Both the position numbers and the translations under genes were made by a program. Below, piece after piece: positions 2,438-62,773 of a stretch of 64,000 nucleotides of DNA. The stretch comes from Sphagnum compactum. Its lineage: Eukaryota. The notes below the pieces were generated by a model that worked only from the letters and a program-made list of their open reading frames with translations, did no database searches and was not told the origin of the DNA. The stretch covers positions 1,922,001-1,986,000 of the forward strand of contig OZ234493.1 in NCBI GenBank assembly GCA_965153455.1, read 5' to 3'. Every line of letters begins with the position of its first letter. Position 1 is the stretch's first letter.

Positions 2438-2857
2438 GCAACAACCCAGGCTTTAGAAGAGTAACACCCGCAGAAACATGCAATTTTTGAACCCGGATCT
2501 CACCAAGCTTGTGGCAAGAAGAAGCCAGAGTTCAGCTGGTTCTGGGCAGAGATCTATAAATCTATTGTAGTTGAATAGAGCAGGTTTGACAAAAATAATA
2601 TAAATTTTAGACATGCTGAAATTTCCAAGAAAAATTTAAAAAAATTCTCAAGGAATTATCATTTTTAGGGTGAATGTCAAATGAAGCATCCTTTGGAATA
2701 TTCATGAAATATATAATTTTAGTTGTCCAAATGCAAATTTCAAAAATTAAATAATTATTTGTCAGAGACTTGTCAAAACTCTGCTTTTCAACCATATGTA
2801 CACATGGTTCAAGTACATGTATATATGGATGTTTTTTTCAAAAAAAAACACCTTTCA

Positions 2858-3233
2858 TAGCAATATTTTACAGCAAAATTTGGTTAAATCTTCTTATGGA
2901 TGATCACCAGTTTGAGTACATTGCAATATTTTACAGCAAAATTTGGTTAAATCTTCTTATGGATGATCACCAGTTTGACTACATTGCAATTTTTTTTACA
3001 GCGAAATTTGGTTAAATCTTCTTATGGATGATCACCAGTTTGATTACATTGCAATATTTTACAGCAAAATGGGTTAAATCTTCTTATGGATGATCACCAG
3101 TTTGAGGTCATTGCAACATTTTACAGCAAAATTTGGTTAAATCTTCTTGTGGATGATCACCAGTTTGACTACATTGCCAATTTTACAGCGAAAGAAATTT
3201 GGTTAAATCTTCTTATGGATGATCACCAGTTTG
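2858..3233. repeat. Tandem array, ~63 bp x 6
   Basis: Unit ATTGCAATATTTTACAGCAAAATTTGGTTAAATCTTCTTATGGATGATCACCAGTTTGACTAC. GGATGATCAC recurs at 2898, 2961, 3026, 3088, 3151 and 3217. Confidence 0.93.
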
Positions 3234-4359: not shown

Positions 4360-4714
4360 TTGAAACCAGGGGGTGTGTCACACCGTGGCCTTGCCATTTT
4401 ACATTAAAAAGTATCTTAAGGCAACAAAAGAAGAATTATGGAAACTCAAATATTTCACCATGCAAAAATATAAATCTTCAAAAAATCTTTAGAATATAAT
4501 CTTAGAAAAATGCTCTCAAGATATTATAACTCTATTATAACTAATCTCAAGTTTCAACACAAGCCAAAATATATCATCTTTCAAAAATCCTCATATAATA
4601 AAAATAGACCTATTATTATTACCTAGTATAGTAGGGGCCAAAATCCATTAATTAAGCTACTAGGTATACTCTATAATGAATCTAAACACAATATCCTTGC
4701 CTACCAAGGCAAGG
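4360..4714 (+). repeat. Dispersed repeat family A, copy 1
   Basis: About 85% similar to the rc of 18570-18887 and partly to the rc of 62615-62735 (GGGGTGTGTCA...TTCACCATGCAAAAATATAA). Ends in the hairpin CCTTGCCT-ACCA-AGGCAAGG. Confidence 0.8.
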
Positions 4715-4799
4715 CCAATAAATCATAGTCTTGGCAAGAACAACTCTTGGCTCTACCTTGCACTTATATTTTTTTGATAACATACAAAAGCCATCAGAA

Positions 4800-5102
4800 C
4801 CAGTGTTTTTATTATTGAATTTTGTGATGTAGCTAATGTGGTGGTGATCATTATCCATAAGACAACTAAGCAAAAGTTGGCAATGAAAAATATGAAAGGA
4901 AAATAATAATAATAATAAAAATAAAAATTCTTCCATACTTTTTAGCTACCTACTGGAACTTAACATATAATATTTTGAGATTTTATATATATTTCAAATT
5001 TTCATGAATGTTTTTATAAAATAGAAATTTGTGAAATAATATTCTTTTAAAAAACATTTGAGGTTGAAATTAATTTAACCAGAAAAGTAAAAAAGAACAT
5101 GG
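4800..5102. mobile_element. Degenerate MITE-like element (CAGTG-terminal family)
   Basis: Starts CCAGTGTTTTT...TTTTGTGATGTAGCTAATGTGGTGGTGATCA and is similar to 52227-52520. The right end is degenerate and approximate. Confidence 0.5.
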
Positions 5103-7691
5103 GAATCCCAACCTACTTCAAGTTAAACTAAGTCTATTTTTTTATTAAGTTTCAAAGTTATCTCTTGTGTTTTGAATTAGGGTTTATTTTCTAGAATTTT
5201 TTTGATTAGTTGTTGTTTTTTTTTTCCCCCTTTTGATGGGCTCTCTTAAAAATTAATTACCTAGTGTGGAAGATGAGTTGTAGCTAAGGTATATTGTGAG
5301 CTATGAAAGGGGGGGGGGGGGGGCACCACATTGACAAAGTCATGACCCTGCGTGCTTCTCAAGGGGGGGGGGGGGCGGGGGGGGGAGGGGGTTCCGGAAC
5401 TTTGGGTCTGCATGTCTGCACTGGGGTTCTTGGGCCCGGATGCCTTGTTGCCCATCCATATTAAGTATGCATTAACCTTTCCAGCCAAGCTACTGACATC
5501 ACCATTTTGTTTGTGTGTGTGTTTTTTTTGGGGGCAATGCCAAGTGCAATGCAAGCAAAACAAACACGACTTTTGAGCCTACTAAGAAACTAGAACCCAA
5601 AAACAAACTAGACTCTAAACCCTAATAAACTAGAACCCCAACTTCTGGAGTCCAATGACACTATTGTGTACTACTTTTGGTCCCCTTGACTTTGCTACCT
5701 CACCAAGTGAAAGGATCAGCAACATTGGTCACCAACTATTATTAGCATCACATTACAAATTAGGGTTATTTCACTTTTAATTGCAATTGGTCAAGCTTAA
5801 ATGGATAAAGCTCATTGACCCATTTATCCTAATAACATTAATGTTTGAATCCTCATGTCAAAACATATTATTTCCACCCCATAATTATTTGTGGGACAAC
5901 ATGCTATAGCCTATAGTGAAATAAAAGGTGCCGAATACCATAAATAATCAAGCTTGCTATAGTCTTGTGTGATTCTTTCCTTAGAAGAGAACCTCCAGTC
6001 TTGGTTTTGACATTTAAAAATTATTTGGAGGTTTTTAGGCTAAGGTTTGAGCTTGGTTCTTCCAATTTTTATACCTTTCAATGTTAGTTTTAACATTTCA
6101 AAAATAATAATTTAAGAACATCTAGGCATGGTTCAAAATTTCTGTATGTTTTCATGTTCATAATACACATTTTCCAATGCTAGAGATTGTAAGGGCACAA
6201 AGTTTTATAACAAATTAGTACAAGTGTTTATACAAATATAAAGTTTAACAATTATTTTTAAACATTATTTAATTATAATGTATAGCCTGTTTAACAACTT
6301 TTTCTCTTTTTTTTTGAAAACATGACCTTGTGTTTAAGATTTTTTTTCATGGTTTTAATTTCAGTTCCAAATGTAAAAAAAGAAAAAGTTCCATCATTTG
6401 GTTCTTGTGTTAGTTCCAACAGAAAAAAAGAAAAAAAAGGCTATCAACTCAAGTCCAAATCACAAGCATTTGAACTTGAACCCTTGGATTTACAACCTAT
6501 AAGTAGGAGGAAAGAAAGAGGTAAGTAAGAAAGGAGAGAGAATTAGGTATGGAAGAATGATATCTTGTATAATCCCTATCATTATGGTTCCCCTTTTGCC
6601 TAGGTTTTTCACAACTGAATTCAATGATGTTATTGTCATCTTGTAATTCTTTGCTTGGTCTGAAAGCCAAAAGCAAACGTGTTTCAAGTGAATTCTTTCT
6701 CCACCCTTTTCGTTATTTTGCATTTCCTTTTCTTGTTGTGGTATTGCTAGTGGGGTTTTTAAGGTGAGTTCCCATGATGCTCTTATTCATTAAATTCTTT
6801 TGCAGGTATAGATGGTGGCATCATGGTCATCTTGCAATTTCTAGCATTGCAATTTTGAGTTTTCATTAACAACTTGTTTTAGGCAAAGCTTGACCTATTG
6901 TCATATTGTACATTCTTTCATCATGGTATTGCCTTATTAGTAAGTATAATACCCTCATTCTTTGTAAACCATAATCTTCCATGGCAAGGGGAGGTGAAAT
7001 ATCCCATTTTGTTATAAGCTTCAATTGTTTGTGGGAGAATGACCATAACACACCCCTTGCACATGCATAAATTTCATTTTTTCTTTGTTTACTATCTTTT
7101 CATAAGAATTTGATTTTGATTTACAACTAGTGTATTTTTCAACAACGAAAACAAAAATAAAATCTCATGACTCATGTTTTGGTTTTATGTGTAAGGCTAT
7201 GGCAAGTGGACAAAGCTATTTAGATTTGAACTATCACCTTTTTCTATAACAGAAATGGGAAGGTTCAAGTCTTCTCTGTATAGATTCTCACTGCACTAGT
7301 TCCTTTGACACATGGATTTGCTTCTCCTTCTTTTGCTTGGGTTTTTCCTGTACATGCCATGACATGAAGTCTTATTGCTCTTGCTAACAAGCTTTGCACG
7401 TAAACCCAAGTAGGCTAGCATGGACCATCATATCCATGTGGTAACACTTATTGTTGGCAACTCCATTTGATATCTGTAATTGTATGTGGAGGGCAGCAAT
7501 GGGCCATATCACGAATGTATGTTTTTTGATACCATGGTATGTATGTATACATATGGGAGCTGAAAACTTGTATCAGTCTTTGGACAGATTAACATCAGTT
7601 GTTGAAACATAACTTTTCACATACATAGTTATATGTACTACATGAAAAGGATATGTGTTCTAACACAAAGTACCAAAGAAAGTAACAAGTT
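5064..7691 (+). repeat. Left arm of ~2.6 kb inverted repeat
   Basis: Reverse complement of 18893-21570 along its whole length. For example, the ORF-track peptides at 6866-7051(-) and 19623-19832(+) are near-identical, as are 5352-5576(+) and 21083-21301(-). Confidence 0.96.
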
Positions 7692-8842
7692 AGATAATAG
7701 GCAGCTCAAAGGAAAGAAAGAGAAGAAAGACGGTAAAGATCTTTCCAAGAATGTGGTTTGCAATTCCTCCCGACAAAATTGCCCTTTCAAAGAAGAGAAG
7801 GGACCTTCCACTAGGGGAAGAAGGTCATCGATGACCTTGATCTGGGACCTTCCACTCCGGGAAGATCCCTAAAAGCTCTTTTCCCAGGCAGCATAAAGGA
7901 ACAATTTTGAGAGTGTTCAAGGGCCCACCCAACTCAACATGGGTCTCCCTCGAGCTCTAGCCTCTGGCATGATGCTCATGGATCAACTGGGTGATGATGC
8001 CCCATCTCCTGTCCTCTCCCTCATCACTTCAGCACGATCTTGCCACCTTCCAAGGACTGCTTTGCCTGGAAGGCAAGCATGGGACAGGTGGGGAGGGAGG
8101 AGGCTAATAGCTCTCCCTCTCCCTCCCTCCCTCCCTCCCTCTCTCCTTCCTTCCCTTTGACCAAAATGGGCGAGTGAGTGAGTGCCTGAGTGGGTCATGT
8201 GATCTTGACGGAAAATTATATTCTAGAACAAATATTCTAGAGTCCCAACTGCAAAATTGGGTTGGTGGGTAGGTGAGTGGATGAGAGAGTGGGTCATGTG
8301 TTCTTGACGGAAAAAAAACATATTTGACCAATACTCCAATCTCATCACAACAATACTCCTCCTCCTCCGATCACAACATTTAGTTTTGAGTAGCATGAGA
8401 ATACTAGTTAGGAGTAGGTAGTAGTTTGAAGAGTTAAGTTGAGTCCTCAGAGTGCTAATTCATCAAAGGCTATGAAGAAGGTTGTGGGATTGGCATTAAA
8501 AGGTGGTTTGATATATTATACTAGATTAGTGTGCCTAAATACAAAGCCCAAAAATTCACCACAAAGATAAGATAAGGGGTTGAGGAAAATGTAGAAGAGA
8601 AAAAAAGTCACTAGGATTTTACTCAATTTTTTCCCTCTAAAAGTAGTAGTTAACTTAGTACCCTAGTCTGGTAAGGAACTCATTTTGTTTGGTGGTGCTT
8701 TTGCCTAGGTACCTAACTAACTTAAAAAGGCCAAAGCTATTTGTTATTGTCCATGTTTGGAAGACCTGGGCTTTTTGTCATTGTTGTTGTGTCTTAAGGA
8801 AACTGCACTGGGAAAGTGGGTTGGGGGAGGGAGGAGAGGTTG

Positions 8843-9210
8843 GGTGTATTTTGTCACCAAATCTCGTGGAAAGCAAAATCTTGTCAAGCTTTTAAAAAAG
8901 GGGTTTGGAATTGCATTCATTTATTTATTTATTTATTTATTTAGTTGTAGTGTTTGGGTTGTTCTCTAAAAGTTGGATTCTATTTATTGGAAATGTCACT
9001 TATAGAAACTTTCCAAATTTTCCAATGTATTTAGAGGGCACCTTATATACACCCCAAATAAATTATTTTTAGGTGTTTTTTCTTTTCTTTTCTTTTGGAG
9101 GGTTGTTGGTGTGTTTTGTCACCAAATCTTGTGGAAAGCAAAAATCTCGTCAAGCTTTTTAAAAAAAAGGGTTTGGAATTACTATTATTTACTTATTTAT
9201 TTATTTATTT
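8843..9210. repeat. Direct duplication of ~100 bp (8843-8942 and 9109-9210) upstream of the receptor kinase
   Basis: TTTTGTCACCAAATCTYGTGGAAAGCAAAATCTYGTCAAGCTTTTAAAAAAGGGTTTGGAATT followed by (ATTT)n occurs twice. Confidence 0.85.
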
Positions 9211-10182
9211 ATCCATCCCAATCTCTTTACATATGTTTAATAAGTTCATGATAACCCGTTCCCCTCATGCATAATTGAGGAGTAAAAAGCACATATATTG
9301 GGTCGGGGAAGAATGCACGCTCAAAAATGCGAGGCCAGACTCGACTAGATACCCACCCGGCACGATGGCTTTTCCTTGGACCCACTTCCTTGTTTCGGGA
9401 AACTCCGCACTCTGCAGGCTTTACCCTACACTTATCTCTCCTCCTTACTTTTGTCAAAAAGGGTTGCAAAATCTGTTTTGGGGGCTAGAAACAGGTCCCT
9501 TAAAACCGTGGTGTGTTTTGTTTGGGTTTTGACTTTTTGGCCTGGACTAATACCCTGATTATTAACTGGGGTAACCTATTTGGGGTTGGTTGGTTGGTTG
9601 GTTAGTTGTTTATCTTTTTCTTTCTTTTTTCTATTTTTTTTTTTGGGGGCGTGTTTTGTTCAGTGTTTTTGTTTTTGGTTTCTCTCTCTCTTTTCCTTGT
9701 CAGGGAAAATAAACCAACTAACTAGCTCTAAATTAATTAATTTTTTAAAAAAAAAAAACTAGCTACATGGGAGAAGAGGAGGGGAGCAAAAGAGGGGGAG
9801 GGGGGGGGAGAAAAGAATGGGGGGCTAGTTGTGGACGTGGTTATGAATTTTCTTGAACAAGAAGAAAATTGAGACACTGTTTGTGATGTTTTGGGTGTGG
9901 AATGGGGGTCGTCTCTTTGTGTTTTGGGTGCGAAATTGGGGTCGTCTCAGTCCGTGTTTTTGTCTTTGTTTCCGATCCGCAAGGCCGTCGGAAGAAGGAA
10001 GGAAGAGGGAAGAAATTTGCTTGCCGAGCACTATTTGTTGTTGTTGTTGCTCCTTCTTTTTCTTTCTTCTTGTAGGTTGTGCGTCAAGTAGTTTGTTGTC
10101 GTCGCACAGGATATGGTCTGGTGGGTGCATTTGGTTGCTTTCCAACAGCTTCACAAAACAAGCTGACTGACTGACTGACTCT

Positions 10183-10220
<38 letters not shown>

Positions 10221-10795
10221 CGGAGCAAACAGCAAACCTTCTTTATGTTTTGTCGGAAACAAAATCTTTTGGAAAACTCTTATGCTTTTGTTTCGGAAAC
10301 CAAACAAACAAAATGATTGGGGAAAAAAAAAACCAAAACAGAAAGAATTGGAATAAGCCTCTTGGTGACTCGTCAATTCTTTGTGAGGAGGAGCTTCATC
10401 ATCAGCATCATCATCGTGGTTCTTGTTGTTGCGGAGTGAGTGGATTGGCGGACAACGGGACAGTTGCAAAACATCTGGCTTAAGAAGACTTGAAGAAGAA
10501 GCTGAAGAAGAAGAAGAAGAAGCTGCTATGGAATTGTTTTTGTGCATTGGCCCATCATCTTGTTGTTGTTGTTGTGACAGTAGTGGGTCGTTGTTCAGAA
10601 GCTTCATCTTCTTCTCATCTTGGAAGAGAAGATCGGAAATAACAGATGGAGTGGCGGGAACTCGATCTTGGTTTAGGAATCCTGAACTGGAATTGACTCC
10701 TGCTGAGGGTTGTGATTAGAGAGACAGACACACAGACACAGACAGAGAGTAGGGCAGAGTCTCATTTTGTTGGTGGGGGGGGGTTTGTTGCATGA

Positions 10796-13700
10796 ATGAC
10801 TTCCTTCATGTCTGTTGTGATTGGCTTTTGCTTTCTCACTGCTATTTCTGTCGTGAGAATTCATGGCCTTTCTGCGCAGATTTCCTCCTCAGATGATGAT
10901 GCTGGGATCTTGCTTGGATTCAAGCAGCAAGTGACAGGGGATCCTCTCAAGGCACTGGCAGGTTGGGGACCTGATGCGGCAGCAGATCCTTGCAGTTGGA
11001 ATGGGGTGAATTGCACCAGCTCCAGAGTGACCGGCCTAACCCTCAACAGCTTTAACCTAATTGCCAATGCTTCAGCCATAGGTGAGCTCAGTCAGCTGGA
11101 AATGCTGAGTTTTTTGTCTCTGGCTGGCAACAATTTCTCAGGTGCACTTTCAGAGGCACTCAGTTTCAACAATGATGTTGGAATGAAGTGCAGTTATGAG
11201 TTTCTCGACCTCTCGGCAAATTCGTTATGTGGTCAAGTCACAGGGAATGCTGTTGGGAGCTGCAAGGTGCTCAAAAGCTTGAATCTTTCCAATAACCAAT
11301 TGACTGATGGGATCCCAGCAGGGGTGCTCGGAGGCTTGCAGTTGAACCTACTGGATTTGTCGCACAATAATCTTTCTGGAGCTATACCGGGTGATATTGT
11401 CGTGAATTGCAGCAATTTGGAATACCTAGATCTCTCTTACAATAATTTCTCACAAGGATTACCTGGGGGATTCAGTGCCTGCTCAAAGCTTGTATATGTG
11501 GACCTCTCTTGCAATTCGCTTGTTGGTGTGATTCCATTTGATTTCTCAGTGACCCTATTTTCCCACCTCAATCTTTCATACAACAAGTTCATGGGCAGCT
11601 TTCCCTCCTCTCTATTGAATTGCACACAATTGCAGGTCCTTTCTCTTGCGCACAATCAGTTTATTGGAGAAATCCCCAGTTATGTAGGCAGTTTGCAGCT
11701 TCTCCAGGATCTTGATCTGGGAGCAAACAATTTCTCTGGTCCATTCCCACATGCAGTTTTGAATTGTTCCAGCTTGATGTTTCTTGACCTGAGCTCAAAC
11801 CAGTTTAGTGGGATCATTCCTGCTGAGATATGCCCTGTTTCTTCACAACTCAAGTGGCTATGGCTTCAAGACAATGGCTTTTATGGGTCAATCCCACCAG
11901 AAGTTTCCAACTGTTCACAGTTGATCAGCCTTGACCTCAGCTTCAACAACATGAGTGGGATGATCCCCAGTGACCTCCAGAAGCTTACCAACCTTGAGTC
12001 CTTGGTGCTCTGGTTCAATAATTTTGAAGGTCAAATTCCTGTTGAGCTTGCAAACTTGACTAACCTTCAAAATCTGATCCTCAACAACAATAACCTGCAA
12101 GGTACAACTTTGTCCCACTTCATTACTCACTTTTCTTTCGTCTTTTGTAAAAGATTCAATGTGCTCACAGTTTGTGCTCCCTACTACCCATCTTTTCTGC
12201 ACATCCTTTGAAGCTCCCAGAAATTGATTGAAGTCCAATCTGTAAAAACCCTGCTGTAGCCCAGAGCAAAACATGAAGATCTCAATTGTGATCTAATCAA
12301 GCTCAGGGGAAATGTACACACGCCATAGTCCATCACCCAGAACAACCTCTGATTAGAGAGAGAGAGAGAGAGAGAGAGAGTAGTAGATTGTATGGTCTTT
12401 GATTTGCAATAGGGTTTTATTCCTCATAGGGGAACTTTCATGTCTGTAGAATCAAAAGATCAAGTAGCTCTTTTCTTCCAAATCTCATAGATTTGCTGGT
12501 GGGTGTGGGCAAGAGTTGCAGGAAGTATACCAGCAGAGCTTTCAAACTGCAGTATGCTACAGTGGCTGTCACTGTCTGATAACAACTTGACTGGCACAAT
12601 ACCACCAAGTCTTTTTAACCTTCCAAGACTTGGGGTTCTGCAGCTGGGCAACAACAAGCTGACAGGTGTCATACCTCCTGAGATTAAAAACAGCATGAAT
12701 CTGTTCTGGCTAGACTTGTGCTTAAATAATCTGAATGGCACTATCCCATCACAATTAGGACGAACATCCCATTCTGCTAACGGAATCCTAGACAACTGCG
12801 AGATGGCTTTTATGACATTTCTGGATGCATCTTGCAAAGGCATTGGGGGGTTGATGGATACAGCAGGAATACGCCTCTCAGATTTAAGTGCAATACACAA
12901 TTGTCGTACTAGGTTGTACAACCTTGATAGACAGGAGTTGCAGAATGCTCCCACGCTTGTGTTCTTAGACCTCTCCCACAATGCTTTTGAAGGCTCGATT
13001 CCAAGTGACATTGGTGATTTTTATTCGCTTCTTATCCTCAACTTGGACCACAATAGCTTGTCAGGAGAGTTGCCAGGAAGCCTTGGTGAATGTGCAGAGC
13101 TCATGGCCCTCGACTTATCATCAAATGATTTCAGCGGTCCAATACCTGAGTCTTTCACAAACTTAACCTTGCTTCAGGACTTCAACATCTCAAACAACAA
13201 CCTCTCTGGAAAGGTTCCTGGTGGTCAGCTCCTTGACTGGCCACCATCAGTTTATGCCAACAACCCAGGGTTGTGTGGTTTGCCACTCCCGAATCTGTGT
13301 GTGTCAAGATCCCTCAATCAGACTGCACCCTCAAAATTGTCCTGGAGGGGGGGCCGGGCAGATCATGTTGTGATGGTGCTCTTTATTTCATTGGGGGTTA
13401 TACTTGTGCTTCTCTGGACCTTGTGGCTGCGACGTAAGTCTTTGAAATATTGCCTCAAAGCTCGAACTGAAGAAATCACCTCCTCTTCAGTCAGGGCCTT
13501 GAAGAATGAAGACCAGGCGATTAGTGTTGCCACCTTTGACTTTGGGTTGCAGGAAGGCCTCAAGGAGCTCACATTCGGTGACCTTCTTGAGGCCACCAAC
13601 AACTTCAGCTCAGAATGCATCCTTGGGTCTGGTGGCTTTGGGGAGGTCTATAAAGCAAAGCTGAGAGATGGGTCTTTAGTGGCAGTAAAGAAGCTCATCT

Positions 13701-14497
13701 ATCTCACAAACCAAGGCGAACGAGGTTTTCATTCAGAGATGGAGACGCTCGGCAATGTAAAGCATAAAAACTTAGTCCAATTGCTTGGCTATTGCATTAC
13801 ATCAGAAGACAGGATTCTAATATACGAGTTCATGCCACATGGAAGCCTAGAACGAATGTTGCATGGGGAATGTCAAATACCACAGGAGTTATGTTCAGGA
13901 GCGCAGCAAAGTTTGTCATGGGCAGCTAGGAAAGTAATAGCAGTCGGAGCAGCACGAGGGCTAGCATATTTACATCATGGATGTGATCCACACATCATCC
14001 ACCGTGACTTTAAGTCAGCCAATGTGCTGTTGGATGCAGATTTTGAGGCCCGAGTTTGTGACTTCGGAATGGCGAGGTTTATTAGTTCATGTGAGACACA
14101 TCTAAGTGTGAGCACTTTAGCAGGGACACCAGGGTATGTACCTCCAGAGTATTACCAAAGCTTCCGGTGCTCCCGACAAGGTGATGTGTACAGTTATGGG
14201 GTTGTGTTGCTTGAGCTTATAACTGGCCGATGCCCAACTGACAAAGATGAATTTGGAGACTCCAATCTAGTTGGGTGGACAAAGCTGAAGCTCCATGATG
14301 AAGCAGCACTCAATGAAATTTTTGACCCGACACTGCAACACAATAGTGCAGGCAAGTGCAACAACAATGCTGAACTTGTGCAGTATTTGAGGATTGCCTG
14401 TGATTGTCTTGAAGATAATCCTGCCAATCGCCCTACTATGCTTCAGGTTGTTGCAACCCTAAAAGAGATTTCGTTAGACTGTTGTGATTTCCAGTAG
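10796..14497 (+). CDS. BRI1/BRL-like LRR receptor kinase (LRR-RLK X) with island domain; exons 10796-12101 and 12522-14497, about 1093 aa
   Basis: Domain order: signal peptide (MSVVIGFCFLTAISVVRIHG), LRR N-cap (DPCSWNGVNC), about 18 LRRs, island (12761-12952; CKGIGGLMDTAGIR...HNCRTRLY), 4 more LRRs, C-cap (NNPGLCGLPLPNLC), TM helix, then kinase (GSGGFGEVYKA, VAVKK, HRDFKSANVLLD, DFG). The activation segment THLSVSTLAGTPGYVPPEYYQSFRC is the BRI1/BRL signature. A phase-1 GT-AG intron at 12102-12521 joins NNLQG/SIPAEL in frame. Confidence 0.95.
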
Positions 14498-17400
14498 CTT
14501 GTGTACAGATTCAAATTTCCTGTCACTGAGGTATGCTGCTCTATTTCCAATCAAAATACCCATAACCTGTAATCATTATAACTTTTACCCTATAGAGAAC
14601 TGGGTGGTTCTGCCCCCAGGAAGGGTCATCTCCTTATACCAGTCACAGAGACTGTCAGAGATGCTGGAGCTAGTCTCAGGCTCTGGGCTAATTTGCACAG
14701 GCATTAAACTCAAACTTGGGAAGATAAAAACTAAACTTCCCTTTTCATTAAGCACTTACAATTGTAGATTAGAACACTGCCAGATGCCCAGATGTGGGCA
14801 CATTTCATTGGTTATAGTGTAGTATACCCATACTTAGTGTCTTTGTACATTATCTATTTTGTTAAGTGCTCATATACACTCCTTTTGTAACAGTCCTCTG
14901 TAGAGATACAGATGTAAAACCAAAGGATCTCTTTCATTGCCTTAAGAGGCTAGTAGATGATCATGGTAAAAGATACAAGGGCTTCACTGCATGTGAAAAA
15001 TTCCAGATCATACATACTTGCTGAGTGTGTTTTTGTAATTGTATCTTTCAACATGCTGTGATAAGGAACTTTCACAATACCTGGGGCAAACTTGTGATTC
15101 TGTGAAAGTTAGTTGTTTTTTCCAAGATATAGAAACTTAGCTCCAAAAAGGTCCTTGGATTACATACAATCACATACACTGTCTTTAGCTTGTCTTTTGG
15201 AGGATTTTGCAGACTTTGAGTGTTCAAACCGTAGATGAAACGTTGAGTCTGTTCCCAGCAAGCATGCAGTAGGATCTTGGAGTGGTGACAAGATCAGTAT
15301 GATGGTAGTAATATAAGTGCTGTGTATAAACCAAGATGCAACACTTGCATGAGCTGCAAATCCTGAAGTCTTCATTGAAAAGGCAATGCCCTAGGTTCCT
15401 TGAATTATGGATGCTTTCATAAACCTCAAGATGCTCACATGTTGCACCCTGAACATTTGATCCAACTTAACCTATTGCTTCAGAATCTACCCATTTGATC
15501 ACATTCATCAACACGCTCTTTGATGTAACCTCCAAACTAAGTCCCAACTTAAATGGATATATATATATATATATGAGGAATAAAAAATATGTTGATCCTT
15601 TTGCATCATTTCAAATGTCAAGTGAGGATTGTAAAAGATCTGCATGGAGTAACCAAAACATGTTTTGGTCGAAGAGGAATGAGGACCCAATGCATATTAA
15701 TTGATCACGAGAAGAACTGCCGGTTATACTTGTCATTTCTAATAACCAGCCGGCACTGGTAGATATATCTCCATCTGTTGGGGAGCCCACACATGAAATC
15801 CCCAGAGTACAAAATACATGCTCAAAATACAAAGTAAAACCCCCTTTATAATCACGCCATTGGCGACCACTTTTGTTTTGTGAGACTAACGAATTGTGAT
15901 TTAAACATGTATAGTCAGTCACATTCCATATAAACCCTTACAAGATTATGAGTTATATGCCAACAAATCTTGTATCAGAAAAGAAGAATGTGGCAGTTTC
16001 TACACCATGTAAAGCCCTTGGGGGGTGAGCTTTACTAGAGACAAGCCTCTGCTCAGCTCCAATAAAACCTGCCCTATGAGCTTTACTCTACACAGTAAGG
16101 TGGAAAGTTTTTAGTGTGAGTGGAGGGCACCTTACCTTTGTTAAAATCTTTGCCTAAACAACAACAACGGATGGCACCTTCTTTAATATGCGCAAGGTAG
16201 GCCTCCTCTCCTTCTCAAACAAAATAACAGATATGCTATATATTCCTAGAACAGCCCCATTTTGTGGTCCTTACCCTACTACACATAAAAAATTCAATGG
16301 TTTCTTAATGAATTGTTAGCATCTCGAAAGCAAGAAGGGACCAAATTGGAGGTGTTCTCTGATACATATTTGTAGTAAAGCTTGAATTATTTTTAGCCTT
16401 TCCTTCCCTTTCTTTTTTCTCCTTTTTTTTTGTTGTTGTTTTGACAGTACCCACAAGCCTTACAATAAGTGGGCTATCATGGTGTTTCCAAATTGTTACT
16501 TGGAGTATAAGGCGTGTGGGCAAAAATTGATACCATTTTTGTCGGGCGTAAAAGTGGTGTTAATAGGATGGTTTATTGTATGGTTTCTCACGTCATCCAT
16601 GTGGCACCCATCACATGCACCTACTCCTTGAATCACATAGGTAGTAGTCATCTTCGACATATTTATTTTCCTTTTTCTTTCAAAAAGTCAGGTATTTTGG
16701 GGTTGTGAGTGGGTTGCTAAGAAGATGAGTGTAGTTCCTTGGCAACTTCTTCACATGTTTGTTGAATAATTAATTAATTAATTAATTAATTATTCATTTT
16801 GATGAATATAATGTTCCCGATGATGATTCGTTATTTTTCTTTGAATTTATTTTTTTAAATCAACATTTTTGAAAAAACATAAATAGTGTCAAACCTGCCA
16901 AGGTCTTACGGTAATGAAACCAAGCAAAACAAGCAAAACCAGGTGTGAGTGCAATGTGTCAAGAAAGGGTTCACAGTTAGAACAACAAAATCCCCCAATC
17001 AAATCTGTCCTCCCCCAACATTAAAAAAAAAACTGACATAATTTAATTCATAAGTAGTCTTCTCAACTTTGATATAGAAGATTGGCGATCATTACGGTAT
17101 AGAAAGTTCATGAAACAATTGATGAGACCATCTATGGAAATCAAATGGGAGTTGTCTCAATGATGATCTATTTTTAATGCTGAAGACATCATGTGGATCT
17201 TTTTTGTACAAGCATCAAACCAACTTCATCTTCAAGGTTTAAAAACACCAAAGTTAATTATAGACATCTTTGATTTTGAAGATTGTAAGCCTGTTGTTAT
17301 TCCACCCATGATGTACACAACATACAAATATTGAAACAAGCCTAGCATATAAAAGTTGTTGATGAAAGGAAATAGGTTAAGTTGAATTCATTTGTCATCC

Positions 17401-18569
17401 TATGTGTATTTTGCAAGTTATGGTGACTCATTTTTCGCACATGAGAAGTTTAATTTCACCAAATTTTAACACTAAATAAAAATATGTTTTACTCTTTCCA
17501 TCTTCTTCCCATCATCTTTTAGTCACCTAATTTTATTTTTCTGAAAAAATGGTTTCAATTCCCTTATAGAAGTATATAGTAGTGAATTGACAAGATTACA
17601 AAAATTGTTATGATTTATTCTCCAAAAGGAATTCGTAAGTTTTGTAATTTTGGGGCTTTTCAAAGTCAAAACATTTTACTAATATTGTTTTTGCTCATGA
17701 CACCTTAAATAATTAGTGTAATCAGTTAATCATCCATACCGAATTTGAAGAAAATATCTTTATAAGTGATTCACAAAAATGAAAGTTATAAGTCCATTTA
17801 CAAGCTCCATATGTGTTGTAATAGAAGATGTGACATTTAGTACATAATTCATGTGGGGGTGAAAACACACTACAAGAGGCACACTCGGTCACTTAAGGTG
17901 ACCATTTAGAAAGTAGTGGGTTTGCTTGTTAAAATAATGTGATAGACTAGAATTGAATATATATAAGAGGATGGATTGAAGAATCATAATTAAATGATAA
18001 TGACCAAAAATATTCATAACCAAAATAAAAATCAAATTATACTATGATGTGAAGGTGCACATATTGTTATTATTCATGATTATGTCATCAAGGCATTTCA
18101 AGTCCTTCAAAAAAAAGGTTAAGTAGTGAAAACATGAATTATATCACTTTCAAAATGTTTTTGAGTACTATATTCATTTCAAATGGTTTTGCACATGTTA
18201 CAATAATATATTTAAAATTTTCCACATGAACACAAACTAAAGACTTACAACATTCATTAATATTATTTTTGACATTAAAACATGGAAAACTAAACATCGG
18301 TTACATTTGTTGTAGTGTGTGTTAATGTGATTGCACCATGTGATTCATACAAACAATTTGATAGTGATTCAATAGGGTATAACAATATAAGATTATTCTT
18401 TTTTAAATATATACCAAATGTGAAAAGAAATTCATTTATTTCTCCCTCCCTCTCTCTCTCATATATTAGAACCTATGACAGTTTAGAAAAACTTTATGTC
18501 TCATTTCTCAGTATTGGGAACAACAATATTTCTCCCATTATTTTGAGGCTCCCTTGGCATTTGTTGGGT

Positions 18570-18887
18570 TTGCCTACCAAGGCAAGGATATTGTGTTCAG
18601 ATTCATTATAGAGTATAGTAACTTAAGGGATTTTGGTCCCTAGGTAATAATAGGTCTATATGTATATGAGGATTTTTGAAAGATGGTATATTTTGGCTTG
18701 TGTTGAAACTTGAGATTAGTTATAGAGTTACGATATCTTGAAGGATTTTGATTTCTTGTTGAGGATGTTTTTGAAGATTATATTTTTGCATGGTGAAATA
18801 TTTAAATTTTTATTATTCTTCTTTTGCCATAAGATACTATTCAATGTAAATGGCAAGGGCACAGTGTGACACACCCCTTGTTTTCAA
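18570..18887 (-). repeat. Dispersed repeat family A, copy 2 (abuts the right inverted-repeat arm)
   Basis: Inverted homolog of 4360-4714. Confidence 0.8.
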
Positions 18888-18892
18888 AGGAA

Positions 18893-21570
18893 AACTTGTT
18901 ACTTTCTTGGGTACTTTGTGTTAGAACACATATCCTGTTCATGTAGTACATATAACTATGTATGTGAAAAGTTATGTTTCAACAACTGATGTTAATCTGT
19001 GCAAAGACTGATACAAGTTTTCAGCTCCCATATGTATACATACCATGGTATCAAAAAACATACATTCGTGATATGGCCCATTGCTGCCCTCCACATACAA
19101 TAACACATATCAAATGATCTCCATGTATCAATAACAGATATCAAATAGAGTTGCCAACAATAAGTGTTACCACATGGATATGATGGTCCATGCTAGCCTA
19201 CTTGGGTTTACGTGCAAAGCTTGTTAGCAAGAGCAATAAGACTTCATGTCATGCCATGTACAGGAAAAACCCAAGCAAAAGAAGGAGAAGCAAATCCATG
19301 CGTCAAAGGAACTAGTGCAGTGAGAATCTATACAGAGAAGACTTGAACCTTCCCATTTCTGTTATAGAAAAAGGTGATAGTGCTCGTTTGCCTGAAACTG
19401 AAATTGTTATCTTTGTTTGGTGAGCTTAAAGCTTCCAGATTGTGTCCAAATCTAAATAGCTTTGTCCACTTGCCATAGCCCTACACATAAAACCAAAACA
19501 TGAGTCATGAGATTTTATCTTCGTTTTCGTTGTTGAAAAATACACTAGTTGTAAATCAAAATCAAATTCTTATGAAAAGATAGTAAACAAAGAAAAATGA
19601 AATTTATGCATGTGCAAGGGGTGTGTTATGGTCATTCTCCCACAAACAATTGAAGCTTATAACAAAATGGGATATTTCGCCTCCCCTTGCCATGGAAGAA
19701 TATGGTTTACAAAGAATGAGGGTATTATACTTACTAATAAGGCAATACCATGATGAAAGAATGTACAATATGACAATAGGTCAAGCTTGCCTAATACAAG
19801 TTGCTAATGAAAACTCAAAATTGCAATGCTAGAAATTGCAAGATGACCATGATGCCACCATCTATACCTGCAAAAGAATTTAATGAATAAGAGCATCATG
19901 GGAACTCGCCTTAAAAACCCCACTAGCAATACCACAACAAGAAAAGGAAATGCAAAAATAACAAAAAGGGTGGAGAAAGAATTCACTTGAAACAAGTTTG
20001 CTTTTGGCTTTCAGACCAAGCAAAGAATTACAAGATGACAATAACATCATTGATTTCACTTGTAAAAAACCTAGGCAAAAGGGGAACCATAATGATAGGG
20101 ATTATACAAGATATCATTCTTCCAGACCTAATTCTCTCTCCTTTCTTACCTACCTCTTTCTTTCCTCCTACTTATAGGTTGTAAATCCAAGGGTTCAAGT
20201 TCAAATGCTTGTGATTTGGACTTGAGTTGATACCCTTTTTTTTCTTTTTTTCTGTTGGAACTAACACAAGAACCAAATGATGGAACTTTTTTTTATACAT
20301 TTGGAACTGAAATTAAAACCATGAAAAAAAACCTTAAACACAAGGTCATGTTTTCAAAAAAAAAGAGAAAAAGTTGTTAAACAGGCTAAACATTATAATT
20401 AAATAATGTTTTAAAATAATTGTTAAACTTTATAGTTATATAAACACTTGTACTACTTTGTGCCCTTACAATCTCTAGCATTGGAAAATGTGTATTATGA
20501 ACATGAAAACATACAGAATTTTTGAACCATGCCTAGATGTTCTTAAATTATTATTTTTTAAATGTTAAAACTAACATTGAAAGGTATAAAAATTGGAAGA
20601 ACCAAGCTCAAACCTTAGCCTAAAAAACCTCCAAATAAATTTAAAATGTCAAAACCAAGACCAGAGGTTCTCTTCCAAGGAAAGAATCACACAAGACTAT
20701 AGCAAGCTTGATTATTTATGGTATTCGGCACCTTTTATTTCACTATAGGCTATAGCATGTTGTCCCACAAATAACTATGGGGTGGAAATAATATGTTTTG
20801 ACATTAGGATTCAAACATGAATGTTATTAGGATAAATGGGTCAATGAGCTTTATCCATTTAAGCTTGACCAATTGCAATTAAAAGTGAAATAACCCTAAT
20901 TTGTAATGTGATGCTAATAATAGTTGGTGACCAATGTTGTTGATCCTTTCACTTGGTGAGGTAGCAAAGTCAAGGGGACCAAAAGTAGCACACAAGAGTG
21001 TCATTGGACTCCAGAAGTTGGGGTTCTAGTTGATTAGGGTTTAGAGTCTAGTTTGTTTTTGGGTTCTAGTTTCTTAGTAGGCTCAAAAGTCGTGTTTGTT
21101 TTGCTTGCACTTGGCATTGCCCCCAAAAAAAAAACACACACACAAACAAAATGGTGATGTCAGTAGCTTGGCTGGAAAGGTTAATGCATACTTAATATGG
21201 ATGGGCAATAAGGCATCCGGGCCCAAGAAGCCCAGTGCACACATGCAGACCCAAAGTTCAGGAACCCCCTCCCCCCCCCCTTGAGAAGCACGCAGGGTCA
21301 TGACTTTGTCAATGTGGTGCCCCCCCGCCCCCTTTCATAGCTCACAATATACCTTAGCTACAACTCATCTTCGACACTAGGTAATTAATTCTTAAGAGAG
21401 CCCATCAAAAGGGGGAAAAAAAAACAACAACTAATCAAAAAAATTCTAGAAAAATAAACCCTAATTCAAAACACAAAGATAACTTTGAAACTTAATAATA
21501 GACTTAGTTTAACTTGAAGTAGGTTGGGATTCCCATGTTCTTTTTACTTTTCTGGTTAAATTAATTTCAA
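18893..21570 (-). repeat. Right arm of ~2.6 kb inverted repeat
   Basis: Begins AACTTGTTACTTTC (rc of the left-arm end near 7691) and ends TTAATTTCAA (rc of 5064-5073). It carries extra segments at about 19099-19129 and 19382-19446. Confidence 0.96.
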
Positions 21571-22499
21571 TTTGATCACTTAAGTCCATATTCTCTTTTT
21601 TTTTGAAAGCTTGGAAATACTAAGTAGTAAAACATAAACAATGCATCAATTTCAAGTAATTTTTTAAATATATGTTTATGCCCTTTTAAATATAATTATT
21701 TTATACACATGTGCACAAACCCAAGTTTGTCCAAGGTTTTTTTTTTGGTGACGTCTCAAGCTTCTTGGACATGGGCCTGGGCTTTTTGAACATAGGCCTA
21801 GACAATGTCCCTAGGCTTTTGAAAAGGAGGATGGGTGACTATGAATCTCGTGAACTCAAAAAGCTAAGCTTGTTGTTTCTTGGTAAAAGGCTATGTCAAT
21901 TCTAGCACTCTACACTTGGGCCCGAACTTTCTAAACATATTATGCATCGAGGTGGCCCAAGTCTCTTGGGTATGGGCTCGAGCTTCTTGGACATTAAGAC
22001 GGTCTACTACTCCAAGTTCAATGAAAATCATAGCCTTATTCTAATTGTAAGCATGGCCTTCTTCGACAAGGGGGCTTAGGATCCTTGAAAACACATGTCA
22101 TTATTTTCAACACACTATGGAGGAGTTATGCCAAAGCTTTGTAGCTAGATGAAAACCCTCAATGTGAATGAAGATGTATGACATATATTTTTAAAGACTA
22201 CATAAATATGGCATATAAATTTGTGAACAACCCAAGGCCAAATATGCATAGACTTTTTTAGACGTAGGGCCAAACATGCATGAACTTTAAAACCCCCATG
22301 TCAATGTTTGTGGACTTTTAGAGCAAGGGCAAGTATTGCATTGTGCTCCCAGGGTTTTTGGGATTCCAAACATTTTTTATTGGACAAAAATCATGGGCCA
22401 AGGCTTGCTACAACCATGGCCTTTTTGGCTATTCCATAGCTGCTTGCTTTTTTAGGCTATTGTTTGTGTTCCCAAGTTATTGGTTTAGAAGTTTAAAGC

Positions 22500-22848
22500 C
22501 AGTGTGGTGATGGATGCGAATTTGATTTTTTTGCGAATTACTGTCAATTGTGGTTTTTTATTAAAACATTTCAGAGTTAAAGGACCGGGCAGTTTGGGTT
22601 GTTTCAGAAACCTCAAAAAAAAAAGCGACAGTTTATTATGCCAAAGGAACCATGAAAGAACCGACGGTTATCTTCCTTTTTTTCCCCAATTTTGGAGAAT
22701 CGTGTGATCTATGAACCCTAATAATATTTCTCGGATTCCAGTTCTTTGGTTCTTGAAAACCGGCAATTATAAACCTTAAGAATCACCTTGATAATTGTAA
22801 GGGGGTCTGGCTGTTCCTTGTTTTTGATAAGTACCCAATCACACTAGT
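22500..22848. mobile_element. MITE-like element (CAGTGTG...CACACTAG termini), relative of 1890-2437
   Basis: Short imperfect terminal inverted repeats plus internal motifs shared with 1890-2437. Confidence 0.5.
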
Positions 22849-25627
22849 TAAAACCAGTGTTTGGTCGCTACTTTACCCTCATGAAGAAAGAACCTCCGGT
22901 TCTGGTTCAAGAAAAATAAAATAAAAACTATCTCAAGTTTTGCTTCCCACATGTAAAATGAAATCCACAATCTAGTTTTGCGTCTGGATTTTTATTTTAT
23001 TTTTTATTTTTCTAAAATTCAGGTTTTGGGTTTTGAAAAATGAGAGTTATCGATTCCAATTTGGTTCTTCTTATTATTAACCCAGACAGATCAAAAACCA
23101 ACAATTAACTATCAGTCAACCCTTGGTAGAAGAACTAGTCACTTTTTTTTTCCTTTCAAAAATCTCATCTCAGTGTCCAACTCTGGTTCCACACCTAAAA
23201 ATACAACTGGAAACCTGGTTCCAGCTTTAGCTTCTGTCACTCTTTAAGAAAAAAGAAAACCTGGTTTGGTTACAGGTTCTTTCTTAAAAACCAGAATTGA
23301 AGAAATTCATGGTTTTATGGATACCCTACCTACCTACCCACCTACCTACCCACCCAACATTGGTTCAAACCACAGCCACCACCAACACAAGGCCAAAAAG
23401 GCTGGATCATGGGTAAAGAAAAGGGTTTTCAGGACTGTTGTTGGCTGGCTGGCTCATCAGCTGCTTCCCTACAAGAACCAAACAAGGACGTCGTGGTCGT
23501 GAAGCTTCGGGATGAAATGAAGCTTTCCATCCAGACGTAGAAAATAAGAAAAAATAAAACTTATAATAATGAAGAAAAACTCTACTTGAAAAAGAATGAG
23601 GTGTGTCTTCTTTCTCCAAACTTCAAACTTGCATCCAAATAAACAAAAATACAAAAGTGAAAAAGAAACACTTTATTTTTATTATAAATAATAATAATAA
23701 AAACAAAAAACACATAAAAATAAGAAATAAAAAAGATAAAAGTTTCTAGAAAAAACTAAAACATGAACCAAACATTGTTGAAATAACACACCTGTGCATT
23801 AGGCACAGGGTTCAAACTAGTTGCCAATAGATAAGATGTTGTACATGTACGATTTTGTGTCCACAGTCCAAACACCCAAAAAAATATTCGTTCCAATCTA
23901 AACAGTCTAAACACCAAAAAAAAACGAGTTCACCTAATGTGAAACTAATTTTTGACGGCCCATCTTAGATGTAGGTTGACTAATTGTCGCTGGTGTCAGC
24001 TGCGAAGCCAGCGTTCAGCCGGCACACTCGCAGGCAATCAGCTGCTCCCCAACTAGTTTTAATAAGGTAAAACTTCCAAAAGTTGAATTCGAATGAGATA
24101 GTCCCTTGTCCTTGTTTGTGGGGGTCAGGCAGGGCCCCAAGAAACCCCACAAGAGAAATGGGAAAATTATTCAGATTATCAAATGTTATGAATCAGATTG
24201 CCAACCGCCAGACAGAAAGAAATCATAATAATTCTTCTCCATAGCCGAAGAGAATTATGTTGTTGGTTTTGTTTTGTTGGAAGAATAACAATGAGGCAGG
24301 AGAGGACAGGATGATGATCTATTTCTCACTGCCCATCATCTTCCTGCAACAGGACAGTAGTAGGGCTTTAGACTTCTTCGATGATGCTGTTTTGCAGGAC
24401 ATGGTGGCACTCATAGGGTGGTGAGCTCATAGTACGTAAGCTTGAACAACCCGATTTCTTTCCACAGGACGCTGGATTTCAAAATATCTTGCTGTTCCCA
24501 TTTGTCTTCGCATTTGTTTTTCAACTTTTTATGTCTTCATCTTTTTTCTAAATTTTTTTTGTGGAACAAATGGACAAATCCAATGCAGACAGCAGCCAGT
24601 ACATGGATCAAAGATCAACAATGACAAAAGTCAATTAACCTCATCTGCGGAGCTTTGAGAAGGATCTGACAAGCTGCTTTTTGTGAAGAAGAAGCGAAGA
24701 AGGAGCATCTCATCATCTTCTTCTTCTTCTTCTTCTTCTTGTTTATCACACTGTTGTTGTTGCTGTTGTTGTAGTTCTGTCATCATCATCATCATAGCAC
24801 TCCACCACAGAATCTTTGCTTGCTACACGTTTCCTTCACACCCATCAAGCTCACAAGCTGAGTTGAGCTTTTGCTTGTTTTGTTTTTGGTCTTTGGGTGT
24901 GTGTGAGTTCAAGTTTAGAAGCTCCTTCTTCTCTCTTTCTTTCTGTCTGTGTTTTGAGGAGACTCAATTGGGGTTTTGTGGGTGTGTCTTTTTTGTGTGT
25001 GTGTTTTGTGTGGTAGTTTTTGAAGAACAAGTGTTGGGGAAGTGCAACAAGGGTAAGTTCGGTTTGTTTTTTTTTCGTCTTGGGTTTTTTCTTTTTTCTT
25101 TTTTAGGAGAAGGATGCATAGTAGTTGCAATTAGCGCTGATAGAGATTAGGAGAGGAGGATCTTGAGAGAAGGAGAAGGAATCACGGAGGTGGTGGTGGG
25201 TGGAAGACTGTTGAATTGAAGGAAACAAAAGTTTGTTTCAAAAGGGGCAACAAGCAGTGGAGAGCCGAAGGAGAAGAAAGAAGAGCGAGGAGGAAGGAGA
25301 AGAAGCAGAAGCTAGAGCGAGGAAGGAGAGGGAAGGCCTTTTCATGGTGTATGTAAGTCACGTTTCCAAAGAAGCAATTCTCAGGAAGCAAGTGACCTCG
25401 GAGCAGCAGCAGTAGATTTGGAGGAGGAATAGCGCGAAGATTGATGTTCTGAGAAGGAGAGAGAGTAGGGAACAGCGAAGGAAAGAGGAGAGAAGAAGAA
25501 TCATCATCATCATCATCATCATCACAAGCTTAGCTTCAATCCTTAGAGAAATTTGGCAAACTAAAGGAGAATTCTTAAGGAGGAAAACAAAATCTGGGAC
25601 GTCAGCAAGCTTGAAACTGTGGAGAAG

Positions 25628-48268: not shown

Positions 48269-48310
48269 CCCAAAATGTCTTTGAGCTTCACCTTGAGCTC
48301 TGATACCACG

Positions 48311-62735: not shown

Positions 62736-62773
62736 TTAATGTGTATAAGGTATGTTCCAAAAATAAAAAAAGG

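Follow-up and report, generated by a model that had tools for sequence, protein, structure and literature searches.

How does a plant receptor gene come to lie between two long inverted repeats, and does the arrangement affect the gene? The window analyzed here, a stretch of 64,000 nucleotides from Sphagnum compactum (contig OZ234493.1, positions 1,922,001 to 1,986,000), poses this question, since its positions 5064-7691 (left arm) are the reverse complement of 18893-21570 (right arm) and a BRI1/BRL-type receptor kinase gene stands between them. The evidence below indicates that the pair probably arose in a single event, an inverted duplication mediated by repair or replication and accompanied by a deletion at the insertion site. 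The features on which the argument draws are, in window coordinates:

5064..7691, + strand: left arm, the surviving portion of the donor copy
7691..7692, no strand: junction of a 515-bp deletion, where positions 1193-1707 of outgroup locus L112 are missing
7692..18418, + strand: resident spacer, aligning colinearly (87-96% identity with gaps counted) to outgroup loci L110-L112 and L114
10796..14497, + strand: BRI1/BRL-type LRR receptor kinase, 1093 aa, single-copy, spliced in contig L109 and expressed (polyA RNA)
18419..18423, + strand: 5-bp microhomology common to the acceptor site and the donor-segment end (L112/L114 empty site versus window)
18419..21570, - strand: inserted inverted copy, 3152 bp, comprising the right arm and a part since lost from the left
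18560..18884, - strand: dispersed repeat X, complete, ~325 bp, high-copy, copied with the segment
21571..21573, + strand: 3-bp filler at the outer junction, from the empty-site comparison with outgroups
21574..21724, + strand: old dispersed repeat, its 5' part lost to the insertion and cut again at 21724
21724..21725, no strand: probable right breakpoint of a larger inversion, joining two truncated repeats

Two arms and the gene between them

Self-BLAST and a global alignment agree on the inverted match with indels that a preliminary description had reported by eye. By self-BLAST, with gaps counted, 5064-7231 matches 21570-19444 at 95.6% and 7230-7691 matches 19381-18893 at 91.5%; globally aligned, the arms differ by 51 substitutions in 2578 columns (2.0%, K2P 0.020) and by 18 gaps, among them gaps of 64 and 31 bp. 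That the arms are two local copies rather than members of a family is borne out by a genome-wide search with the full arm (47 matches; 40 of 306 candidates scored), in which the two arms alone exceed 90% identity and the remaining matches are fragments of 67-83%; neither the arm nor its ends turned up a third time in the genome. The arms are likewise non-coding and free of transposase sequence, as first described: the longest stop-free stretch in 18419-21570 is just 85 codons, and Rfam returned 0 matches across 4000-24500. CpG observed/expected in the arms is 0.14-0.17, and the left arm is a composite of old intergenic DNA and decayed repeat fragments.

The second arm was also correctly judged not to be an assembly duplicate. 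Of the four junctions, two are spanned by contigs from a second, independent sample of the species: the left inner one (record 7604-8907, run X2) and the right outer one (record 20677-22246). That sample also holds alleles of both arms, and its arm contig has a depth of 19.4 compared with 11.4-13.7 in adjoining single-copy contigs. The right outer junction is spanned in organism B as well; organism C has no arm junction. Although part of the inter-arm gaps fall in homopolymer runs, the bridging contigs, the raised depth and the biological anatomy of the junctions refute an artefactual second arm, and we give an assembly artefact practically no credence. Run X9 has 215 other letters ahead of 7692, and in run X11 one contig piece starts at 21574. 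The gap in coverage across the receptor gene in run X9 was not taken to mean that the gene is missing, since mapping drops records and the word share of 0.51 for 9000-18900 would be hard to reach without the gene. Short-read contigs are blind to a flip of the spacer because the junctions are equal in both orientations.

The LRR receptor kinase is the sole gene recognized in the spacer, a point of the preliminary description that held up on gene annotation. Its exons are covered by polyA RNA at a depth of 10-15, with the signal ending near 14.9 kb, and it has one 420-bp GT-AG intron (12102-12521) within the LRR region. The island domain is BRL2-like, the best solved-structure matches are BRL2, BRI1, BRL1 and BRL3, and the ortholog in L109 matches the BRL2 ectodomain with the island aligned (E 4e-160) and the BRI1 kinase (E 2e-118). 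Judged by its LRR ectodomain, island and BRI1-like kinase, the receptor belongs to the BRI1/BRL class, an assignment made from structure-sequence matches. Receptors of this class bind brassinosteroid and signal through SERK co-receptors, as the moss protein may do. An exact look-up of the L109 protein gave no match in the protein collection searched. The next-best paralogues in the genome reach 51-53%, and an orientation test by homeologue was dropped because the receptor lacks a close paralogue. A BRL-type receptor is recorded for peat mosses in the relevant passage of PMC9223546 (citing Furumizu and Sawa 2021), and the gene here is alike in its LRR-island-LRR-kinase architecture. Arabidopsis BRI1, in contrast, is described as intronless in the portion of bioRxiv 10.64898/2026.09.21.753065 that concerns it, whereas the moss gene carries its intron in the LRR region.

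An empty ancestral site and a resident donor

Comparison with the orthologous locus, a check that the preliminary description had called for, revealed outgroups with the left copy and an empty right site. Four outgroup loci extend to the insertion site (L110, L111, L112 and L114, from two lineages ~95% identical to each other), and it is empty in every one; both of the outgroup loci that reach the donor end contain an intact, longer donor. The ancestral layout in related moss contigs is a single copy upstream of the BRL gene and nothing at the downstream site. L112 and L114 carry left-arm DNA at the same position, from 7003 inward; these outgroup loci cover the inner side of the donor, and its outer junction at 5063/5064 is assumed to be ancestral. 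Donor end and insertion site lie 9.4 kb apart in L112 and ~10.7 kb apart in the window. Comparison with L112/L114 shows that the spacer has kept its ancestral orientation with respect to both the donor arm and the repeat at 21574.

The extent given by the preliminary description fits the present arms and falls short of the original unit. Positions 718-1657 of L112 align without a break to 19398-18419; because this alignment continues past 18893, the duplicated unit exceeded the arms as they now stand, its right-hand copy extending to 18419. The apparent inner arm ends exist because a later 515-bp loss trimmed the left original, taking repeat X, ~130 bp beyond X and 50 bp that had never been copied; no clear microhomology marks this deletion junction at 7691/7692. 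Copies of repeat X are 87-91% identical (genome search; 40 of 3092 candidates scored), and X already lay within the donor in L112. The proposal that the arm cut repeat X was rejected, X being complete and formerly in the donor.

At the inner end of the insertion, four of the five microhomology bases also match in L110/L111. At the outer junction 41 bp of target are missing next to the filler, and the repeat at 21574, which runs intact across the empty site in L112, is broken precisely at the junction. No repeat longer than 4 bp flanks the copy as a TSD, and a polyA tail is likewise absent. The preliminary description was right that neither arms nor unit have a TSD, yet it overlooked a 5-mer repeated just beyond the outer ends (5057-5061 and 21571-21575). 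This 5-mer was rejected as a TSD: it is offset by 2 bp at the left end and overlaps ancestral sequence, and the DNA beyond the unit's right end already adjoined the spacer in the ancestral state. Microhomology, deletion and filler without a TSD constitute the signature of templated break repair.

Read in this way, a break ~3.9 kb downstream of the receptor stop codon would have cost 41 bp, and its left end would have used the 5-bp microhomology to anneal to the opposite strand of gene-upstream DNA lying ~10 kb away. Some 3.15 kb would then have been copied from that donor strand, and the copied end rejoined to the other break end with the 3-bp filler. Such a duplication, presumably of the SDSA, template-switch or polymerase-theta type, would have neither moved nor inverted the spacer; afterwards both copies would have drifted neutrally and the donor lost its 515 bp.

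Divergence of the arms and a larger inversion

Compared with L112, the arms are 5.6-7.1% divergent, much as the non-coding blocks 17043-18423, 7692-8100 and 18419-18892 are (5.7-7.5%); the block directly 3' of the gene diverges by 3.9% and the exons by 2.6-3.3%. On these sequence comparisons both arms drift neutrally, at the intergenic rate. Polarized substitutions number five on the left, five on the right and one ambiguous. No conversion tract between the arms was detected, their longest identical run being 120 bp compared with 177 expected at random. The arms (2.0%) are slightly closer to each other than are the flanking DNAs of organism B and this species (95/3365, 2.8%; Fisher p=0.04, uncorrected), a difference that hints at continued arm recombination, although organism B also has the insertion junction. 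Transitions make up 20-22 of the 51 arm substitutions versus 35 of 40 in a neighbouring LTR pair. Mutagenic copying was considered for this low share and rejected, since derived changes are equal on both arms and nearby non-coding DNA is similar in spectrum (39/38, 13/16 and 22/25; but 52/26 and 21/14). Polyadenylated RNA over 18899-21566 reaches a depth of 0-0.3 (run X22, ~12% read); RNA runs X15-X20, with word shares of 0.23-0.27, do not enter into this figure.

Unexpectedly, this lineage also differs from both outgroups by a bigger inversion, at most ~63 kb long, close to the right arm: outgroup DNA past the 21574 repeat is found at G000 C1 1869932-1880880, in minus-strand orientation. The junction at its probable right breakpoint, 21724/21725, is bridged in runs X2 and X9, and its left counterpart falls somewhere between C1 1880880 and the left arm. 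In organism B a single contig (record 21511-21957) contains both the insertion junction and the 21724/21725 junction. Recombination between repeat copies at 21725 and C1 1894141 was rejected as the source of the inversion, since neither swapped flanks nor a reversed 5' piece were found.

Competing origins and known systems

An inverted dispersed duplication with an insertion-site deletion and an inversion with duplicated breakpoints yield equal junctions and inverted copies flanking a single-copy segment. After a staggered-break inversion, however, the segment between the duplicated breakpoints is inverted relative to the ancestral state, whereas the spacer here keeps its colinearity with donor arm and 21574 repeat as they lie in L112/L114; duplication without inversion is favoured because the outgroups show the enclosed segment in its ancestral orientation. 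The junctions taken by themselves match a staggered-break inversion later undone, in which recombination between the duplicated arms flipped the spacer back; the cassette would on that history be demonstrably flippable, and both orientations perhaps still segregate. Arms of 2.6 kb at 98% are a plausible substrate for ectopic recombination, and gene conversion could account for a similarity somewhat greater than their age would predict (p=0.04, uncorrected). Local duplications can serve as inversion substrates according to a passage of Pace et al. 2009 (PMC2671141). But a restored spacer costs one event more than the templated copy, the assembled orientation is the ancestral one, and the arms have no long identical tract, retain 18 indels and carry arm-specific derived changes; we regard this history as improbable. 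A second alternative would derive both the 3.15-kb copy and the inversion (up to 63 kb) from one multi-switch event of replication-repair, with the arm as a breakpoint by-product and with no change in the repair chemistry proposed above. The 21724/21725 breakpoint lies only ~150 bp from the copy's outer junction, so that the duplication may belong to a complex rearrangement, and organism B has both junctions while both outgroup lineages have neither. However, the 21725 junction coincides with a truncated dispersed repeat, which allows a separate origin, and the left breakpoint is merely bracketed; a joint event is unlikely, if worth keeping in view. It is improbable that the arms still pair and recombine, with the one BRL receptor gene of this moss segregating both ways in a region reshaped by a single complex repair event that made copy and inversion together.

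Regulation of the receptor through the repeats, as the preliminary description envisaged, or of a downstream GRAS gene would involve siRNA-directed methylation or a loop, or an enhancer moved with the copy; receptor-upstream DNA does now lie ~3 kb upstream of the GRAS transcript. In the Arabidopsis work reported in part of bioRxiv 10.1101/2022.07.05.498814, short gene-proximal inverted repeats form siRNA-dependent chromatin loops; there most repeats (einverted maximum 1000) derive from transposons, and over half are transcribed into a single RNA that folds into a hairpin. The moss arms are likewise inverted and within a few kb of a gene but, unlike those short, transcribed repeats, lie 11 kb apart with the gene between them and no polyA transcription. 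A hairpin would require a single ~16-kb transcript, whereas the gene signal stops near 14.9 kb and arm depth is 0-0.3 versus 10-15 over the exons. Sequence constraint is absent from the arms, which diverge like ordinary intergenic DNA and lack the transition excess of the LTR pair, though CpG is already scarce. This suggestion gained no positive sign, and regulation is very unlikely; no observation to date shows the arms flipping, looping or regulating the gene, and they are probably without function. A foldback element, MULE or Pack-MULE whose long TIRs captured the receptor, or one transposon inserted twice, might be read into the recurring 5-mer, which abuts the right end and is set off from the left one by 2 bp. 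A captured unit is absent at the orthologous site, TSD-flanked and has a parent gene elsewhere, and foldback/MULE arms belong to a dispersed TIR family. The moss receptor is instead single-copy, without a close paralogue, and resides with the left arm and the same neighbours in outgroups that lack the second arm; the arm has no TIR family, third full copy or coding frame. Empty-site alignments thus refute the foldback-like gene capture proposed earlier, and a transposon origin is as good as excluded.

The templated copy most resembles repair-mediated duplications (RDs), in which nearby DNA is captured at double-strand breaks, as set out in the sections of PMC2671141 concerned. It shares with them an empty outgroup site, an interrupted older repeat, no polyA tail, a single nearby donor on the same chromosome, and junctions with microhomology, deletion and filler, the commonest pattern among their proximal cases (10/39, Table 1); one in opposite orientation, an ACSBG2 exon, is also described there. 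Size sets it apart: proximal RDs reach at most 619 bp with donors under 5 kb (distant ones reach 3424 bp), compared with 3152 bp and a donor 9.4-10.7 kb off, and the vertebrate deletions span 1-15 nt versus 41 bp. Plant SDSA filler DNA, in the passages of PMC4423477, PMC3445842 and PMC11712536 that treat it, is alike in being a genomic copy at a repaired break with target bases lost and no TSD. Fillers at rice excision sites measure 1-123 bp, though, and in wheat it is genes that end up at non-collinear positions, whereas the moss insert is kilobase-sized, local, inverted and non-coding; in contrast to those studies, no triggering transposon excision was identified at the moss site.

The locus changes no existing model. 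It offers a well-resolved natural case, from a moss, of kilobase-scale templated break repair in which donor, empty site, junctions and decay can all be read, and it illustrates that long inverted repeats can arise around a plant gene without a transposon and without inverting the gene. It would carry greater weight if both orientations occur, or if the copy and the adjoining inversion were one event. The insertion, the 515-bp trim and the large inversion provide lineage markers beside the one BRL gene that peat mosses have. Within a background sample of 694 kb for inverted clusters, with copy number checked in two of five other clusters, a further two-copy 3-kb inverted pair lies ~60 kb downstream.

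The inverted arms and the receptor gene between them

Self-BLAST recovers the inverted pair at the same coordinates at which the preliminary description had placed it, on either side of a receptor kinase gene.

5064-7691, left arm
10796-14497 (+), BRI1/BRL-type LRR receptor kinase gene, in the spacer
18893-21570, right arm

Global alignment of the arms yields 51 substitutions over 2578 columns (K2P 0.020) and 18 gaps, the biggest of 64 and 31 bp, in keeping with the high identity and several indels first described. Searched against the 382-Mb genome, the left arm gives 47 matches; among the best 40 scored out of 306 candidates, identity above 90% is confined to the two arms and the others are 67-83% fragments of old repeats within the arm, leaving two local copies. 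For the arms' inner 490 bp and the spacer next to them, the genome search gives no further match. The claim that the arms encode no transposase holds. None of their reading frames exceeds 85 codons, and an Rfam search returns 0 matches. The same 5-mer stands close outside both outer ends, 2 bp off on the left (5057-5061) and directly adjoining on the right (21571-21575).

To assess support in reads, 4 of 23 sequencing runs were compared with 7560-27559, a stretch that includes all of the right arm but just 132 bp of its left counterpart, and the figures apply among the matches listed. Run X2, a 2018 sample under the same species label that could be the assembled sample itself, contributes one contig crossing the left inner junction (7604-8907) and another crossing the right outer junction (20677-22246). 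Its collapsed arm contig is a mixture of both arms' alleles, at a depth of 19.4 versus 11.4-13.7 in adjacent single-copy contigs. The junction contigs and the depth uphold the view that the pair is not an assembly duplicate.

The receptor comprises 1093 amino acids, with one 420-bp intron (12102-12521) in the LRR region that is confirmed by a spliced contig from a related moss (L109) and is of similar length in three other moss loci (L110, L112, L113). Arabidopsis BRI1 is intronless, in contrast to the moss BRL gene with its 420-bp intron (accessible text of bioRxiv 10.64898/2026.09.21.753065). The L109 ortholog best matches the BRL2 ectodomain, with the island domain aligned, followed by BRI1, BRL1 and BRL3. 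The gene is single-copy, the next genome matches lying at 51-53%. According to the accessible part of PMC9223546, which cites Furumizu and Sawa 2021, BRL homologues occur among mosses only in lineages such as Sphagnum, and a Sphagnum BRL has already been published.

Ancestral arrangement and origin of the right arm

A metagenome scan with exon 2 as query retained 6 loci out of 109 pattern matches. These fall into two lineages, L109-L111 and L112-L114, with about 95% identity between lineages and to the window; assemblies inside one lineage are possibly not independent. The order in these loci involves a dispersed high-copy repeat, here termed repeat X.

4360-4723, 18560-18884, 62612-62737, repeat X, ~325 bp, >3000 first-look candidates

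L112 and L114 run from the arm (window 7003 inward) through repeat X, ~130 bp more and 50 bp absent from the window into 7692-15708, and on through 17043-18423 and 41 bp to 21574-21724. This order implies that the ancestral copy was single, lay upstream of the gene and was longer than the present left arm. The downstream site is empty in all four loci that reach it (L110, L111, L112, L114), so that the proposed comparison with the orthologous locus in relatives finds one arm, upstream of the gene. Judged from sequence, a single upstream copy and an empty downstream site mean that the right arm arose by inverted copying of a segment, 3152 bp in length (18419-21570).

Target and donor share 5 bp of microhomology (18419-18423) where the copy begins on its inner side; a 3-bp filler occupies the outer junction, and 41 bp of target were lost at the insertion site. 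Alignment of window and outgroup reveals no target-site duplication at these junctions, as the preliminary description had noted. The insertion struck an old dispersed repeat, and the deleted bases coincide exactly with the 5' part that this repeat now lacks. The filler and the copy's end form a tiny foldback, and the filler is possibly templated, possibly chance.

We propose that a break downstream of the gene would have been repaired by copying the 3.15-kb segment, in inverted orientation, from the gene-upstream donor by way of SDSA (synthesis-dependent strand annealing), template switching or polymerase theta. After the insertion, the left original was shortened by 515 bp, and this loss set the positions at which the arms now seem to end on their inner sides (7691 and 18893). 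The insertion would date to the common ancestor of this species and organism B, and the trimming to this species only. In organism B (run X9; ~2.8% divergence from this species), a contig (21511-21957) crosses the right outer junction, and arm contigs at depths of 63-78 versus 24-53 elsewhere suggest two arm copies. Before 7692 in X9 stand 215 letters that differ from the arm's inner end; we infer that they match the untrimmed donor end by length, as 184 bp (X to 7692) plus 30-31 bp of contig overlap. A contig piece from organism C (run X11) begins at 21574, which indicates that this organism has no arm joined there.

In the accessible text of PMC2671141, the hallmarks of repair-mediated duplication (RD) taken to indicate SDSA are microhomology, deletion, filler, one donor close by and a repeat broken up by the insert, and the window copy has the same features. 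It is longer than the RD proximal class described there and its donor is more distant, and for these reasons we say that it "works like an RD" and keep it out of that class. Filler capture at breaks is known in plants (accessible parts of PMC4423477, PMC3445842 and PMC11712536). Among the main texts that our literature search covered, few of them subscription papers, none deals with this locus or with the repeats around it. The type of structure is already known and the example at this locus is new.

Inversion through staggered breaks, followed by a flip back, would give the same junctions. This route requires one extra event, because donor arm, spacer and 21574 repeat are colinear in the outgroup. 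Outgroup coverage of the donor arm starts at 7003, and the donor's outer end (5063/5064) is presumed ancestral. With templated copying preferred, the inverted pair is real and well explained in mechanism, and it is probably neutral.

Two differences in length accompany these comparisons. The 1.33-kb segment 15709-17042 is absent from L110-L112 and L114 and covered in organisms B and C; it is an insertion in this lineage or a deletion in the outgroups, with no clear target-site duplication. The outgroup arm carries a ~440-bp insertion (L112 280-717), within a 64-bp stretch deleted from the window's left arm.

Divergence and transcription of the arms

Both arms diverge from L112 by 5.6-7.1%, which resembles three adjacent non-coding blocks (5.7-7.5%) and differs from the receptor exons (2.6-3.3%); the block that follows the gene immediately on its 3' side stands at 3.9%. 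In the outgroup-covered part, the left arm carries 5 derived substitutions and the right arm 5, with 1 ambiguous, and indels are private to each arm. The longest identical arm-arm run is 120 bp versus a mean of 177 expected under random placement, and we therefore recognize no conversion tract. Against simple neutral drift, the arms are closer to each other (51/2578) than this species is to organism B in five flanking contigs (95/3365; Fisher p=0.04, uncorrected), though B has the insertion too. This excess similarity could come from rate differences or occasional conversion.

In polyA RNA (run X22, ~12% of the run), receptor exons reach depths of 10-15 and the signal stops near 14.9 kb; over the arm the depth of polyadenylated RNA is 0-0.3, with left-arm reads counted in. 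The inverted repeats that form loops in Arabidopsis are short, stem for the most part from transposons and are often transcribed as hairpins, and in these features the window arms are unlike them (accessible text of bioRxiv 10.1101/2022.07.05.498814).

A probable larger inversion and the repeat neighbourhood

In both outgroup lineages the DNA past the 21574 repeat does not lead on, as it does in the window, to 21725 and the GRAS gene; instead, it maps to the minus strand of the window's own contig at 1,869,932-1,880,880 (88-94%), 41-52 kb ahead of the window start.

L110 7586-14908; L112 13213-18484, outgroup DNA past the 21574 repeat
24600-28749 (+), expressed GRAS-domain gene, ~3 kb past the right arm; close paralogues elsewhere add reads

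Contigs of both X2 and X9 cross junction 21724/21725, which joins two truncated repeats. Read most simply, this arrangement would reflect an inversion that occurred in this lineage, spans at most ~63 kb and encloses the whole unit and the receptor gene. Its left breakpoint is bracketed only: the DNA from the left limit to the left arm, mostly old transposon debris, lies outside outgroup coverage. The receptor gene is thus inverted relative to relatives, though not via arm-arm recombination. The templated copy and the larger inversion may be a single complex event, as only 150 bp, outside the right arm, separate the inversion's right breakpoint from the copy.

In a 694-kb background sample (494 kb around the window and 200 kb of contig C5, an arbitrary pick) there are 5 further inverted-pair clusters (≥1 kb, ≥88% identity, within ~50 kb), and local inverted pairs are therefore not rare in this genome. 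Copy number was examined for two of the five: one is a family with at least 11 near-full copies, and the other consists of two ~3-kb copies and lies downstream of the window unit by ~60 kb.

Window contig 2002571-2005586 / 2037757-2040725, second two-copy inverted duplication, 94-96%, 32-35 kb apart

A 0.6-kb match at 2012305-2012923 of the same contig adjoins this duplication. On contig C10 (12.39-12.42 Mb), an inverted pair ~23 kb apart has 1.5 kb and flanking blocks in common at 87-91%. Other repeats occupy the window itself.

42187-49127 (-), Ty3/Gypsy chromodomain retrotransposon, 820-bp LTRs, 94.8%
2034-2367, 2856-3233, 34699-35702, 62776-63201, minisatellite-type tandem arrays, periods 46, 63, 261 and 47 bp

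The retrotransposon's LTRs differ by 35 transitions and 5 transversions, and its coding region is broken over several frames. Repeat X, which we take to resemble a Helitron/Helentron, has a hairpin near one end and sits at T-runs without evident target-site duplication.
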